DNA of 64,000 nt from Pecten maximus (lineage: Eukaryota), in the NCBI RefSeq assembly GCF_902652985.1, contig NC_047019.1, forward strand, positions 25,110,001 to 25,174,000, in the 5' to 3' direction. Made by a program: the position numbers and the translations under genes. Of this stretch, positions 2,221 through 61,990 are shown one piece after another (positions within the stretch are counted from its first letter, which is position 1; each line of letters starts with the position of its first letter). The notes beneath the pieces were generated by a model. That model saw only the letters and a list, made by a program, of their open reading frames with translations. It did not search any database and was not told the origin of the DNA.

Positions 2221-2660
2221 CTTGATTTCAAGTCACATGATAGTTCGACTGACGTGGTCACTAAAGTGATTGCTATTTTAAGATGATATATCTATCGTCT
2301 TGTAGTACCTTTAGGTGACATTGACGAACTTTGTCAATGTCTCTCTTCAGTTTTAATCAGCCTCGACTATAGAATGACCAACAAGGGACCACAGTTTGTT
2401 CCAATGAGTATGTTACTATTCTGTTGGAAGATCTTAGCTCAAAAGGATGTTATCAATGATAATCTTCAATTTTTTTTTTACTATTTCACCTTCTTTGTAT
2501 ACTTTCTATGGTCGTATGTTTAACTATACGTACTAATATATTTTGTTCCTAAAGTTTGGAATGGTAGTATAAGAGTGGAAAAATCAATTTTACATTTCAC
2601 AGCATACACAAGGAACATAATTCCCTAAACAATATCAATGGACATTATGGGACACAAATA

Positions 2661-3197
2661 CGAGGGCTGATTGATAAGGTGTGAGCCTCGTTTTGAAAGG
2701 ATAGTCCTACTATTATCTGACCATATAGGGCCGTGTATCCAAGGACTTGTCTCATTTGGTTAGTTTATATCGACGAGGTAGCGACGAGGTAGCACTCTAA
2801 AGTAAACAAGACAAGCGGCTTTTGCAAAATGGACAAAATCGGTAAGGGTTAGGGTTAGGGTGAAATAGTCTGTCATTGCCATGTAACCATTCACGATTGT
2901 GGCTTTAAATTGATCGAGCATCTGCCTTATTGACGTGATCTCGCTCCATCAGACTTTCATGTATTTCCAAAAATGAAAACGGCTATTTCAGGCACTCTAA
3001 CCCTAACCCTAACATGCTGTGGATGACTTTCTGAACAGCCAAGACAAGGAGTTCCATAAATGTGGCATTGAGGCCTTTAAACATCGCTGGCAAAATTGTA
3101 TAGATACTGAAGGGGTTTATGTTGAAAAATAATACAATATGTCCGGCAAAATTCATATCCTTCAATATGAGGCTCATAACTTATCAATCAGCCCTCG
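2661..3197 (+). mobile_element. Non-autonomous Tc1/mariner element, copy 1
   Basis: TIRs cgagggctgattgataag.../...cttatcaatcagccctcg, with TA on the left and CA on the right. Remnant transposase: start MDKI, a degenerate PY-PDLAPSDF motif and the C-terminal KHRWQ-CIDTEG-YVEK*. Confidence 0.9.
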
Positions 3198-6100
3198 CAA
3201 AAGGACAATACAAACCTGAGACATTTGAGGGATGAAATATATTTTTTTTTATTTCTAAAACAAGACAAAAGAATTAGTGATAAGTGAGATGATGTCTCCT
3301 ATATATAGATGAACTGGTCACCAAACAGTCATGATACAAATGAATATTTGATATTCTATGTCTGTTATTTGTATTTGTCAATAAAAAAAAAAACCCACAA
3401 AAAACCCATTTTAAATCTTAAATTGAATAACATGCATACATTACATACATAACTAGACTGTTTGAGAAGGTACAGCGATCTTACTGAAATCATGAACATA
3501 AATCATAGGAAAGCTCAATTGAATTTCACGAATGTAAAATATCGAAACAAAATGTGACCAAACATGATAGCATATCGCCGAGATCGTGTGAGGACAGAGA
3601 TGTTAAACGTGGTGATTTCTTCTGAATGATAAGTTCTGCTGCCAAATCGAATTTCTGCAGATAAGCGTACCTGTCGTCCCATCATCACCATAATGGGCGT
3701 CAAACTTTGTCGAGATCTGTACACAACAGCTACGCACTCTAGCTATCTATCCTAACCTATCAAGATTTGATCAGTCGAACGAGGGTATGGTTGAATACCT
3801 CGACATGTCCGTTTATAAGGGGTGTCTTCTTGATTTATACCATACGTCATCTTACGAACATTAACTGTTTATCATTTTTACAATCCATTACAATGCCCAC
3901 CAAATATAGCACGGTCGTAACTCTTTACATGAAACGTATTGAAAGAGGATTTAAAAACGACTGGTTATCGTTAGTATATCTTTGGTACAGGTTGTCACAT
4001 CTAGACATATCAACATTTACATGACTCGGCTAAGGACTGCATTCAACCAAGCATTCAAAACTGACAGGAAGGCCGTGTTTCTAACCAACGATATGTACTA
4101 CTATTCAACCATACGAATGCATGGTATATGTTATGACTAAAATCCCCCCTATCAGATACTGACGGGAGTAAACTTATCATATCTCACACTTCTCTTATTG
4201 GATTATTTGGACCAATAGCAGAGTTAAGTCAATCATCATTGTTTGTCATGGACATAATTTCTCTATCAAGTCATTCATATTAAGATGTGGCGCACTGTCG
4301 CTCTTCGCTTGGCGGGGACGCCAGTACCACATGGCCGAAATCAGCCACCATACATTCTGCAGTCAACATGGGATCGTATTTTTCAATTTTTCGTCCAATA
4401 CAATAGGCAATGTCTTAGCCATATGATTTTCTTGCGACTGTCCTTCTCTGTACCTCCAGTTCTGTACTATATTTGCTAGGTCTTTGATAGAGGGCCCAGT
4501 ATAAATGGTATGATCTGCAAAGAGAGAGCAACTCCTAGATCTGTACCATTCTAAATATCTCCATTGATGATATCACTGTATATAGTTTCGGACCAATGCT
4601 CGTCAAGCGACCATAAGAGAGGTCATCCTGTGACACACAGATTCAGAAAAAAAATCTGCATTGTTAGGAATTTTCTCTATATGTTTCTGTCCCCTGTGTG
4701 TTGTTTTGACATTCAGTTGAAATGATATTTTCCTCCGATATATAATTCCGTATCAGCTCACATTAAAAAAAAGTTTTCATACCGGTGGTGGTCTCCACCC
4801 TTACCTACAATTGTACTTGGCCAAGATTACAGCGTTTACTTCTACATGATAACAAGGGTACATTTCCTCGCCTTGGTATGGATCGCCATTACTACGTTAG
4901 ATGGCTGTATCTTTCTGATTCCCACTCCCTCGATGTGATTTGGGATGATCCAACTAGATGATGTATACCTCCATGACTTGATAAAATGGTTGTACCTTTC
5001 TGATCTCTTCCTGTAATTAAGAAAGCCCCACCTGGAAGGTGTTTATATCCATAACATAATGACGTATCTGCAGGTGAACTATGATATTAACTGTGTAATA
5101 ACTGTGGTATTAACAATCGTTGATTGTCGATTCCCTTGATACTAATTTGTTCGCTTTGCTGCCCTTTTCAGAATCACAAGAAACCTTATCTACTGTCGGG
5201 ATCAAGATATGCCTACCTGACACTTAATCTATTTATGTAGGCGCACGGAAATACAAAGGAGTGTCATATACACCAATATAAAAGGACACACTATATACAA
5301 TATATAGAGGATATCTAACAGTTTCTAATTGTGGCTAATAATTTGATATTTTTCACGAGTCCATAGCACGGCGTTTACCAAGACTTATTACAGACCCACG
5401 GAGTTCCTCTCTAACGTAATTGTATGAATGCATCTTTGTTACCAACATATTAGTACATGTTGTTAAATGGAATATTTGTGTATATATGTGTCTTGTTTGT
5501 AAATTTGTCGTAGTATATTCATTCACAACGTCTTAACATCGAAAACGACCACAGTTTTGCAAACCAGATGTAGGATTTTAGTATGTTAATCAAAACGAAA
5601 CATTCAGACAGATATATTTAAAAGTCACCTCTGACTTCGAAGCGGTTGCCGATATTACTAAAAAAGAGGAAATGTTCAAATATGATCTTAAATGAGTATT
5701 CATTTCATATTGGGTTTTATGATAAGAGTCTTAGAAGTTTTTATTTTAGACATGCCTTTGTGTTATTACATTACGTAGAAAACCTACATTTTGACAGGTT
5801 TAAAGCGAAAATGTGGAGGTTAAAATCAAACGGAGGTATTGGATAACAGGCCGATTGTGTGGTAAACTTTGACAAAGCATAGCTAACGATGTTTATTAAA
5901 TCCGGTATCGAGTCTCTTTTAAATTAATTTTATCGGCAAAAGTACCCCCGGCAGTAAACAATCATCACACCACAACTGTGCGTGTTCTTTGATTTAAAAA
6001 CTAGCGTTTAGCGGGGGAGTTCTTTTTGATAAAACAAAGGTTCATCTGTTTATTTCACCAATGATATATCAGATTGAATTATTCTGCGGTATATAGAACA

Positions 6101-16720: not shown

Positions 16721-16991
16721 ATGAATACGTCTTACTTTTCTATTAGTTTTTACTTAGTACTTGTGTTTCTGCAGGGGGCAATATACGGTGCTATGGCCTA
16801 TAGACAGCGACACCAAAAACGAGTGTCTTGGAGACTCACACTTCTGAGAAAAATTTATAAACAGTTCGATAATGCTGAGAACCTTCTCAGAATTAATGAC
16901 AGAAGGCATTCATTACAGTATTCTGAAAATCCAGACAATAAAGCGAAGATGTATTTTGATAGTTACTCCGACAACCATTTACCCAGTATAG
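16721..16991 (+). CDS. Jelly belly/HEN-1-like secreted LDLa protein, coding exon 1 (signal peptide and pro-region)
   Basis: ATG opens MNTSYFSISFYLVLVFLQGAIYGAMA (hydrophobic signal-like), then YRQRHQKR...NDRR...HLPSI. Ends at a strong donor tatag|gtaagt in phase 1 (271 nt), matching the phase-1 LDLa exon. The link to exon 2 is inferred from phase and architecture. Confidence 0.7.
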
Positions 16992-17179
16992 GTAAGTGTC
17001 ATTTATTTAATTTACACAGACAACCAGTTATAGTATCGTGATCTGTAAAGGATGTACGTAAACATGCTATCTTTGTTTTTATTGTTACATATCGTCTCTC
17101 TCGTCATATTGGTGATGTTAAATAAATATAATATACAATTATGTTTAACGCTGATCACCCAGCGAGTAATAATTACGCG

Positions 17180-58279: not shown

Positions 58280-58316
58280 TATAAAAATGGTACTTTTGGT
58301 TGTTCTTTTCATACAG
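58280..58316 (+). promoter_or_regulatory. TATA box and initiator of the orphan secreted-protein gene
   Basis: TATAAAA at 58280-58286 and tCAtac with A at 58311, so TATA is at -31. The ATG follows 64 nt later. The same tract (ttcttttcatacag) is also a good splice acceptor. Confidence 0.55.
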
Positions 58317-58374: not shown

Positions 58375-58441
58375 ATGAGGAATTTATGCGTAGTAATACT
58401 ATTTATATTGTTGGTGATCCCGACAAAGGCCAATGAGTGTA
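58375..58441 (+). CDS. Orphan secreted prohormone-like protein (100 aa), coding exon 1: signal peptide
   Basis: MRNLCVVILFILLVIPTKA-NEC is a classic n/h/c signal peptide. Donor gta|gtaagt, phase 1. Confidence 0.82.
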
Positions 58442-58931
58442 GTAAGTACCACGTGTATTCACAACAAATAAAGTTATTATATATATATAAATATTTGAAT
58501 GATAGAAAATATCGCTAAAAACAAAGCTCTTTACACGTCAAATTTTCAGATTAATACCTTGAATCTTATTTTATTTTTTTTAATTTAAATTGAGTTGCTT
58601 GCTCTGGTTCCTATGGCGAGATATACGCTAGCGTCGCCATGTAACCATTGTGTCGTCGTGTACAATATTGCATAATCAATTGATGTAATGTGGCGGATAG
58701 CTCTGTTTAGTAATGTGTGCTGATATATGATTGATGTATTATTCTTTTAATCAAAGGTTTATTTTATATCCACACGAAATTATTTGCGTTAACATTAGAT
58801 ACAACACGTTTGATTTAAAAATGAATTATTTTTGTCAAATCTCAAAGCAATTTTAAATCGATTTTCATATAATAATCATACGCTTGTTTCAGTACTAATA
58901 GTTGTTTTATACATTATATTTTTTGTTTTAG

Positions 58932-59029
58932 ATGATATAAACCTCGACTTCGCAGAGCTTACAGATGTAGTCCAAACCAGAAGAAATGATCGATTTTTGT
59001 TGCGCAATTTACCAAGAGTGCTAGATAAG
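58932..59029 (+). CDS. Orphan secreted prohormone-like protein, coding exon 2
   Basis: Acceptor ttttgttttag| and donor aag|gtatgt, 98 nt, phase 1 to 0. Reads (N)DINLDFAELTDVVQTRRNDRFLLRNLPRVLDK. Confidence 0.85.
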
Positions 59030-60394
59030 GTATGTATACAGTATAATAGATTAAAAAGGAAATGCCTTCGTTTTCTTACTTGTTTACGAAGAACGCCGAC
59101 AAGAAATATTCCTATTAAAATCTCAGACTTAAACAAACAGAAGCTTAAAGAAGTCGACTGTCTAAGATTGGTAAATGAAATACACAAAACCCGTTAATTA
59201 AATTGTAGTAAAATAAGAAACATTTTAATATTCTTTTTAGTATATAGTATATATTGCACCCATCAATACTTAGTTATAAATAGTGGAATAAAAAACATCG
59301 AGTATACAAGTATCCGTATTAGGCACATTTTTAAACGAAGTAATAATGTGTATATTAGAATAAAGTATATATTAACATTATAAAATTGTACTTAACTACC
59401 CCAGAAACGCAAAAGTCGTTTTGGGACAAAATCAGTTTAGATATACACCGAACCTCTATCTTTAGGGACATTATCAGTGAAACCTGCAAAAATCTGGATC
59501 GAGTAACGTGTACCTACCTAGAACTAGTAGAGGTCAAACAGATGCAATTTTATAGTAAAGAATAAGACAAAAATTCAAGAAATGCGTAAATATTAGTTTA
59601 GAAATTAGAAAGTCTATAAATAAGATTAGAACCGATTTCAATTGTTAACAATGACGAGGCTTTTAGTGTACAATAAGGTTTAAGTGACTTTTGACATTGA
59701 CTGTATATATACTTTAGAAACCATGTAGAATTTCTAGAGGTGTCAATGGACTTGGTGGTAAGCGTATAAATCATTATTTATCGTAAAGATTCTTAGATAT
59801 GTCAAACATCAAAATTGATTAGAACAAGAATCATTATCCTTTGATATATTAAAAAAAATATATCAACCAGTTTTAATAATGAGGATAGTTGAAACAGCGC
59901 ACTTGCAAATTTAGCATAAAAACGATGATCGATATTTTTATATCAATATTATATTACATAATATGCACACTGCTAGCTACTGCTTAATATAGACTTATAT
60001 ATTGTCTTTCTTAACTGAATAAACTATATTTCATATGTAATATATGAAAAGGAATCAGTCACGATTTTACACACTATCAAAGAATAATCTAGAAAAGAAA
60101 TTAAAATTGGGACCCATTTCAACTAAATAATATTAATTGATTCAACGAACGTTAAGCATTATCAAAAACATTATATGAGGTTATGAATTGACTCATTCAT
60201 GTCTCCACCTTTTTTTTAAATGGACATTTGTATAGTCATGTCCATTACTATTTCAACATCTACACGATGGAGTATTGACAGTCAACACATTAAGGTTCGC
60301 CTACATAAAACTAACATAATGATATCCAAGGTATCTCATCCTCACCACACCGTGACAACAGTGTATCACTTTTTTTCTCTGTTGGTTTTTACAG

Positions 60395-60532
60395 ATACGG
60401 TGTTTAGATATGAAGCTGAACTATCTGGTCGAGGAGGTAGAATCAATGCAGCGAAATCGAAGGTCATCGAACCATCCACTGCAAAGGTCAACAAGTACAA
60501 GGAAATTTATACACAGGAGGAACCGCTACTGA
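60395..60532 (+). CDS. Orphan secreted prohormone-like protein, terminal coding exon
   Basis: Acceptor ggtttttacag|. Phase 0 reads IRCLDMKLNYLVEEVESMQRNRRSSNHPLQRSTSTRKFIHRRNRY*. Confidence 0.8.
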   Translation: MRCLDMKLNYLVEEVESMQRNRRSSNHPLQRSTSTRKFIHRRNRY

Positions 60533-61094
60533 GTGAATGTTGCAGTGTTGTCGTTGATATATGTCTGTACGTATAAACGGAACTTTATATACAAAGGAAC
60601 CGCTAAGATGTAAATGCTGTGTGAAGGAACTGCTATGATTTAAATCGTTTAGTGTTAGCGTTTTTACGATTTTATGTGTGTATGTTTGCAGAAATCGCTT
60701 AAATGAAAATGATGCAATAATCTTGTTGAAGTTATAATCTCCGCAATGTAGAGTATGTGTAGTGTATGTGTACAGAACCGCTAAAATGGAACTGATATGA
60801 TGTAAATGATACAGTGATCAGCGTTAAGATGTTGTGTAACGTAAATGATCTAGTGTAATCGTTGATATGAGTAGTGTAAGCGTTTACATAGTGTATGTGT
60901 GTAGGAACCGCTGTAATATAAATGTGGTAGTGTTAGTGTTAGCGAATAATGGAGTGTCAGCAATGTTAAATGTATGCGTGTTGTGTCTGGTTATACACAA
61001 GATGATGGCTATACAATGAATTTTAACTTTAATGTATGTATGTTTGTGTATGCTTACGTAAGCTACTTAATTTATTGTGAGACCGTAGAAATCG

Positions 61095-61100
61095 AATAAA
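61095..61100 (+). terminator. Candidate polyadenylation signal AATAAA of the orphan gene
   Basis: AATAAA about 560 nt after the stop, followed by T/GT-rich sequence. Confidence 0.5.
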
Positions 61101-61311
61101 TGTTTGTGATGCTATTGTTTATAAAAATTACTATGCAATATTTTTTATAAATTCATCAAACAGGCGATTTTATATCTCTATTTTTTACAAATTGTTATAT
61201 GAAATATTGTTTTCAATTAAAACTATTTTTAACACACGCATATTTTTTTTTCTTTTTTTTATGACTTGCTTAGGCAATTACTATAACAGCTCTTACCGTT
61301 TATATAACATA

Positions 61312-61837
61312 CGAGGGCTGATTGATAAGTTGTGAGCCTTATATTGAAGGATTTTAATTTTGCCTGATATATTGTATTATTTTTCAATACAATCCCCTTC
61401 CGTATCTATACACTTTTGCCAACGGTGTTTAAAGGTCTCAACGCCACTTTTACAGAACTCCTTTTCTGGCTTTTCAGAAAGTCATCCACTGCATGTTAGG
61501 GTTAGGGTTGGGGTGCCTGAAATAGCTGTTTTCAGTTTTGAAAAAAAATCTGATGGAGCGATATCAGGTGAATAAGGTGGATGCTCAATCAAGTTAAAGC
61601 CACACTCGTGAATGGCAGCCATGACAATGACAGACTCTTTCACCCTAACCCTAACCGATTTTGTCCATTTTGCAAAAGCTGCTTGTCTTGTTTACTTTAG
61701 AGTGCTAACTCGTCGATATAAACTAACCAAATGAGACCATTCCTTGGGTACACGGCCCTATGTAATAGTAGGACTTAAAAGAACATCTTTGAGTACCTCA
61801 TTCAATATGAGACTCACAACTTATCAATCAGCCATTG
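61312..61837 (-). mobile_element. Non-autonomous Tc1/mariner element, copy 2 (inverted relative to copy 1)
   Basis: TA-flanked TIRs cgagggctgattgataag. The minus strand encodes AAIHECGFNLIEHPPYSPDIAPSDF and KHRWQKCIDTEGDCIEK*. Same internal deletions as copy 1. Confidence 0.9.
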
Positions 61838-61940
61838 TACTAAACATCAAACGTTTTAATGTAAACTAGTCTCTCCTACTTTCTCCCTGTCCGTATTTTG
61901 GCATTTTTGTTTTGCCTCGTTTCGTTTTTGTCGTCTCCTT

Positions 61941-61990
61941 TGCCGTTACTGACGAGTCCTAGAAGGACAAAACAATTGTATGGTGCAGTT
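61941..61990 (+). ncRNA. Decayed minimal hammerhead ribozyme of Penelope-like retroelement type
   Basis: CTGACGA-gtcct-aga-aggac-AAAAC-aatt-GTA: CUGANGA box, 5-bp stem II, the GAAA box mutated to AAAA and a palindromic short stem III (acaattgt). Confidence 0.55.

Follow-up and report, generated by a model that had tools for sequence, protein, structure and literature searches.

A two-gene family of small, predicted secreted proteins with a heptad repeat in scallops

What kind of protein does a small, orphan, prohormone-like gene of the scallop Pecten maximus encode? The original prediction, made for a window of 64 kb (the whole stretch of DNA analysed), joined a signal-peptide exon to two further in-phase exons, placed a TATA/initiator promoter in front of them and proposed that cleavage at paired basic residues would yield a disulfide-linked, two-chain helical hormone. 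We find that the gene is genuine and spliced, and that it belongs to a two-gene family of small scallop proteins of a predicted secreted type, undescribed but of a familiar general kind. Two features are new here: an invariant heptad repeat, which the original prediction overlooked, and a divergent tandem paralog.

A spliced gene and its putative promoter

The joined exons, all on the forward strand, encode a protein of 100 residues. Coding exon 1 (58375-58441) specifies a predicted signal peptide (residues 1-19) plus residues 20-22, the last of which is Cys22, and ends in a phase-1 donor. Exon 2 (58932-59029) encodes an acidic, predicted short helix (residues ~25-37), a turn carrying RR 39-40 (58979-58984) and the start of a long helix, and ends in a phase-0 donor. 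Coding exon 3 (60395-60532) encodes Cys58 (60401-60403), the heptad helix to residue 74, an RNRR furin-type site (60452-60463), a basic tail (60464-60529) and the stop codon. The two introns, 490 nt (58442-58931) and 1365 nt (59030-60394) long and bounded by GT..AG, are both missing from joined contigs in three of the four runs compared, X2, X7 and X8, each of a different study. The runs, none of them recorded as RNA, are guessed to be RNA. The first exon joint in X8 has a short side of just 20 letters, and X1 contigs contained exon 3 and intron pieces only. Because the genome holds no intronless copy, its matches being the three exons alone, the joined contigs are best read as mRNA. The three in-phase exons of the original prediction thus stand as drawn. 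Part of the stretch was found in 11 of the 24 run rows listed (six studies, their kind again guessed).

The 3' untranslated region (60533-61164) contains AATAAA at 61095, and contigs end at 61110-61164. One X8 contig (at 60495) carries nine letter differences across exon 3 and the 3' untranslated region, one of which changes Ser89 to Asn in the tail, the sole coding variant listed among the four runs. Just 3' of the untranslated region lies a high-copy repeat (61310-61985), very deeply covered by contigs. Its inverted arms are 42 nt long (61310-61351 and 61798-61839) and enclose short, telomere-like arms of TTAGGG; it looks like a non-autonomous DNA transposon.

The promoter was upheld in part. 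A TATA box, TATAAAAA (58280-58287), lies 31 nt upstream of an A at 58311 within an initiator-like site (58309-58314), and this A is the likely +1. Three observations support the assignment: the promoter elements lie 64-95 nt upstream of the ATG, the match of an X7 contig begins at 58311 and the TATA box of the paralog described below is similarly placed. Against it, an X2 contig extends to 58263, upstream of the likely +1, and similar pairs are not rare: 125 TATAWAWR sites occur on both strands of the window, and 6 of them have YCA(+1)NW 29-32 nt downstream, about one per 20 kb. The TATA box and initiator-like A are therefore a plausible promoter, contigs being incapable of proving a transcription start.

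Orthologs, conserved residues and the heptad repeat

The protein corresponds to an uncharacterized RefSeq entry (XP_033740588, LOC117327635), being of equal length and identical over exon 3. A profile search returned four proteins among 922 candidates, all from scallops (Pecten, Ylistrum, Mizuhopecten and Argopecten). The orthologs, XP_021361565/OWF46511 of Mizuhopecten yessoensis (LOC110455644), XP_060071636 of Ylistrum balloti and protein P0006 of Argopecten irradians, are 69-74% identical in the alignment; all are unnamed and have no Pfam domain. An exhaustive HMMER search over 1.84 billion representatives returned only this ortholog cluster. Short diverged proteins are easily missed, and by these sequence comparisons the family appears restricted to scallops at the sensitivity used.

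As predicted, no named family claims the gene. Neither the exons nor the full proteins matched Pfam at its cut-off; a PDB sequence search gave two matches (best E 1.1); the ESM Atlas returned no usable feature match and structure rows below the bar; and a weak search for longer protein forms scored none of 7993 candidates. The gene and ortholog accessions appeared in no paper in a search of main-text literature. Motifs and accessions were also absent from the portions covered of the supplements to the Yesso scallop ganglion precursor catalogue (PMC5996578), of those to PMC6425005 (one file in part; its single match was unrelated) and of those to PMC8557429, PMC8398477 and PMC6410316. Four neuropeptide catalogues pointed to no family. 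The cuttlefish pheromone precursors, as described in the part of PMC3484142 covered, are larger and unrelated.

The residues on which the original prediction was built are present and conserved. The N-terminus has the hydropathy of a signal peptide (GRAVY 1.9 for residues 1-19, a basic N-terminus and Ala at -1), which fits the secreted type that had been claimed. Apart from Cys5 in the signal, the protein has exactly two cysteines, Cys22, 17 residues before RR 39-40, and Cys58, 18 residues after it. Further basic sites are RNRR 75-78, RK 91-92 and RR 96-97, and residues 78-100 carry a net charge of about +7, in keeping with the furin-type site and basic tail first described. Residues 20-38 are acidic (about -5), whereas residues 41-77 are mildly basic. 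All four orthologs share the cysteine pair, RR and RxRR. Mean pairwise identity among the four is 0.43 in the signal, the least conserved segment, 0.60 in residues 20-38, 0.86 in the core (41-74), 0.88 in RNRR, 0.46 in the linker (79-87) and 0.83 in the tail end (88-100). The mature region contains no glycine that could serve for amidation, and neither P4 nor P6, upstream of the internal RR, is basic.

The core of the protein carries a heptad repeat. Between residues 45 and 73, positions 45, 49, 52, 56, 59, 63, 66, 70 and 73 are each L, I, V or M and invariant across all four orthologs, giving an a/d fraction of 1.0 that was equalled in 0.03% of 20,000 shuffles (P ~0.0003), for a stretch picked after the helix had been seen. 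The strongest period in hydropathy is 3.5 (1.70), ahead of 3.6 (1.42), although single amphipathic hormone helices likewise give a period near 3.6. Because the repeat is invariant, the core is likely to be a coiled coil, judged by its residue pattern. The RhxxhE sequence is a trimerisation motif (PMC5940361, in the part covered). Here the canonical form is absent, and a conservative variant, KhxxhD, is found instead: K-I-x-x-h-D occupies positions g-a-b-c-d-e in all five sequences, the four orthologs and the paralog.

AlphaFold2 predicted two helices, at 29-37 and 42-79, the second being the most confident part and the tail being of low confidence, in a model that is weak overall (mean pLDDT 65, pTM 0.37, from a four-row alignment). 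The short helix has a hydrophobic stripe of its own (22, 25, 29, 32 and 36). Given this stripe and the near-equal spacing of the cysteines from RR, the predicted hairpin would bring Cys22 and Cys58 together; alternatively, the two cysteines could join separate chains. With the predicted model, Foldseek gave four rows, none at E<=0.001, and VIA-align gave a best Z of 5.4 to generic helices, with 0 of 48,161 at Z>=8 for this low-confidence model.

A divergent tandem paralog

A profile scan of 264 kb around the gene found one further match (14.2 bits, E 0.024 among 11,574 frames), which turned out to be exon 3 of a tandem paralog. This paralog lies past the end of the window on the same strand (G000:C5:25184095-25188500, L014:95-4500), its ATG lying 13,563 bases past the stop codon of the first gene. 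It has a TATA box at L014:25 and exons at L014:95-161, 2169-2272 and 4231 onward, and, as in the first gene, its coding exon 1 is 67 nt long and its introns are in phases 1 and 0. A tandem repeat with a unit of about 37 bases (by eye) occupies most of its second intron (L014 ~2480-3760). The joined paralog scored 37.1 bits against the ortholog profile, compared with 15.1 for the best of 2000 shuffles, and identity is 33-39% over 54-55 columns of the core. It retains both cysteines, D-F-x-E, V-L-x-K-I-x-C-x-D-x-K and K-I-x-C-h-D, and eight of its nine heptad positions are hydrophobic. It has neither a basic pair between the cysteines nor RxRR.

The frame of the paralog stops after 82 codons. 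Beyond the stop, 63 further codons of this frame are open, and they close with a homologous basic tail. Of 11,574 open-frame ends, none but that of the first gene itself matches the ortholog tails better (26.5 compared with 18.75 for the next). Because of this match, the tail would be an old, kept part of the family. The open stretch has 42% GC, compared with 31-37% in the introns, and its chance of remaining open is about 0.05. Three readings of the product remain: an 82-residue protein, a 92-residue protein in which a 162-nt GT..AG intron (L014:4305-4466) adds the tail, or a longer frame interrupted by a recent nonsense change. Given the stop before its tail, the paralog may be a decaying copy. 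Contigs containing its third exon came from none of the four runs (X1, X2, X7 and X8), which is uninformative either way. The HMMER search did not return the paralog, although its score extrapolates to E ~3e-4 in that database; it may therefore be unannotated.

Comparison of the two genes suggests that the constants of the family are the predicted signal peptide, the cysteine pair, the helix and the basic tail motif. The internal RR would not be among them, because the paralog lacks it. No third copy was upheld: a degenerate exon-3 pattern gave six genome matches, two of which are the known genes, and three of the other four stop within nine codons. The fourth, at C6:38956220 (10 bits), had no matching exon 1 or 2 in the 30 kb upstream and was rejected as likely chance. 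A separate match, at C5:13319407 (E 9.6), belongs to a frame that is retroelement-like.

Possible roles: hairpin signal, hormone or structural protein

In the reading that we prefer, with a probability of roughly 0.4, the protein would be secreted as a helical hairpin closed by a disulfide and would oligomerise; its basic tail would tether it until furin set it free as a short-range signal. The signal peptide would be cleaved after Ala19, and the short acidic helix would fold back onto the long helix, held there by a Cys22-Cys58 disulfide. The long helices would self-associate as a coiled coil, perhaps a trimer, as the KhxxhD variant in all five sequences suggests. The basic tail would hold the oligomer near its source through polyanions such as heparan sulfate until a furin-type convertase cut RNRR and freed the 59-residue core. 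The internal RR would sit in an exposed turn, where it may be nicked in the ortholog group with the fold unchanged. Several points weigh against this hairpin: the AlphaFold2 model is weak and the protein is known from sequence and prediction alone, the heptad stretch was chosen after the helix, the motif departs from canonical RhxxhE, the invariance of the internal RR fits genuine cleavage there, and the basic tail could equally be the active product.

The two-chain hormone first proposed is a possibility that we hold to be doubtful. After cleavage at RR and RNRR, an acidic chain of 19 residues would stay linked through a single disulfide to a helical chain of 34-37 residues. The joint conservation of RR, both cysteines and RxRR speaks for it, as do the opposite charges of the two would-be chains and the position of RR, which separates the predicted helices, and the spacing of the cysteines suits a hairpin with RR in its turn. 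However, the paralog lacks both RR and RxRR, the internal RR has no basic P4 or P6, there is no amidation glycine, and RR borders a core conserved at 86%, so that two invariant residues are expected there anyway. If the paralog is decaying, the argument from its lost sites is weakened. Two chains are compatible with the same hairpin fold; the invariant RR favours them, yet the family does not need it.

It is unlikely that the active product, whether antimicrobial or signalling, is the cationic C-terminal peptide, with the acidic hairpin and coiled coil serving as a pro-region to mask and store it. The tail has the charge for this role (about +7 in 23 residues), its last 13 residues are 83% conserved and recognisable in the paralog, and RxRR, the best-formed site, would release it. 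Even so, the pro-region would be more conserved than the whole peptide (0.86 compared with 0.68), RK and RR within the conserved part would fragment it, and the paralog has no RxRR to free it.

A structural, non-signalling coiled-coil protein of extracellular material (shell matrix, byssus, egg or sperm coat, or mucus), its assembly controlled by furin trimming, seems to us a poor prospect. Restriction to one bivalve family and absence from the ganglion and neuropeptide catalogues would suit such a protein, and heptads, cysteines and a basic tail fit polymer assembly. The protein nevertheless has no repeats or low-complexity sequence and just one close copy, and tightly conserved surface positions such as Tyr65 suggest a partner protein.

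A far-diverged ligand of class-B receptors (ELH/DH44/CRF or PDF/cerebrin) with a gained C-terminal extension is highly improbable. By eye, exon 2 begins with I-N-x-D and is roughly as long as ELH, Asn comes first after RR and L-x-N-L-P is common to Yesso scallop cerebrin. However, when the four orthologs were compared with the genome's two ELH peptides, none of the eight tests reached P<0.05 (0.06-0.75), hhalign gave a probability of 0.1%, the Pfam ELH profile finds the true ELH on contig C18 and the CRF profile finds nothing here, there is no Gly-basic amidation signal and the paralog lacks the NLP motif as well as RR.

Known systems offer likenesses of form. The protein matched neither PF02323 nor PF00473, nor the ELH peptides of the species itself, and was rejected as a member of the ELH/DH44/CRF group. 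Molluscan ELH (PF02323) resembles it in being a helical peptide of 35-40 residues between basic sites; it differs in that there is no significant similarity or amidation here and in that the true ELH gene lies on another contig. That scallop ELH precursor (L003 1186-1803, reverse strand, G000:C18) has two ELH-like peptides in one exon, both ending in Gly-basic. The two-chain califins of Aplysia, in which a single disulfide ties a helical chain to a short acidic one, are a precedent for such a form. The part of PMC8735849 covered names califin in a list only. PDF and cerebrin (PF06324) share the Asn after a dibasic site and L-x-N-L-P. However, cerebrin ends a few residues past this motif in Gly-Arg, whereas in the present protein the helix continues for some 25 more residues and passes through a cysteine; with no 17-18-residue amidated C-terminal peptide and no glycine in the mature region, membership was rejected. 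Cerebrin of the Yesso scallop has a precursor of its own, distinct from this protein. PF06324 had no match anywhere in the genome, so this profile would also miss a scallop cerebrin. Insulin- and relaxin-like two-chain hormones have six cysteines and a B-C-A order. Membership among them was rejected, the mature region having only two cysteines and no Pfam match.

Two further systems are functional parallels only. In PDGF-B, a C-terminal retention motif binds heparan sulfate and proteolysis gives the soluble form, according to the part of PMC8308020 covered. The scallop basic tail follows RxRR, and both heparan binding and cleavage are predictions here; the scallop protein has no cystine knot and no relation to PDGF-B in sequence or fold. 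The ovulin of Drosophila (Acp26Aa) has a coiled coil. It is lineage-restricted, secreted, sequentially cleaved, self-interacting and prohormone-like, as described in the part of PMC12452909 covered. Ovulin is seminal and very fast-evolving, whereas the scallop core is 86% conserved across four genera.

Catalogues of scallop neuropeptides rest on homology and on de novo prediction from ganglia, and the gene pair is missing from those searched. As a signal, the protein would give farmed species a conserved ligand that is confined to one family and short enough to be synthesised and tested, and the paralog would serve as a natural control in judging the importance of each cleavage site; as a structural component, it would be another lineage-specific secreted protein. 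An extended proposal, which we think unlikely, is a scallop-specific hormone family of trimeric, disulfide-closed hairpins, in which one paralog would be furin-released and diffusible (possibly two-chain) and the other uncleaved, a retained and released pair acting on an orphan receptor in some process peculiar to scallops, for example in spawning, swimming muscle, the eye or shell growth. Any bearing on a long-standing open question awaits tissue and activity.

The surrounding sequence yielded some minor observations. Neighbouring exons (in L015-L016, L018, L022, L027 and L032, by eye), which we take to encode a GMC oxidoreductase, an FLVCR-like transporter, a TPM-domain secreted protein, a ribosomal S6 kinase and a Tctex-type dynein light chain, are usable as synteny anchors. 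A reverse-strand frame at L012 266-472, presumably like the first exon of an arginine kinase, lies beside a retroelement-like frame. Within the window, a forward-strand exon at 16721-16993 has a signal-peptide-like start, followed by about 70 residues that include KR and RR pairs, and a GTAAGT donor at its end. It matches Pfam GD_N weakly (E 0.009, under the cut-off), has one clear copy in the genome and is predicted to be the first exon of another secreted protein.
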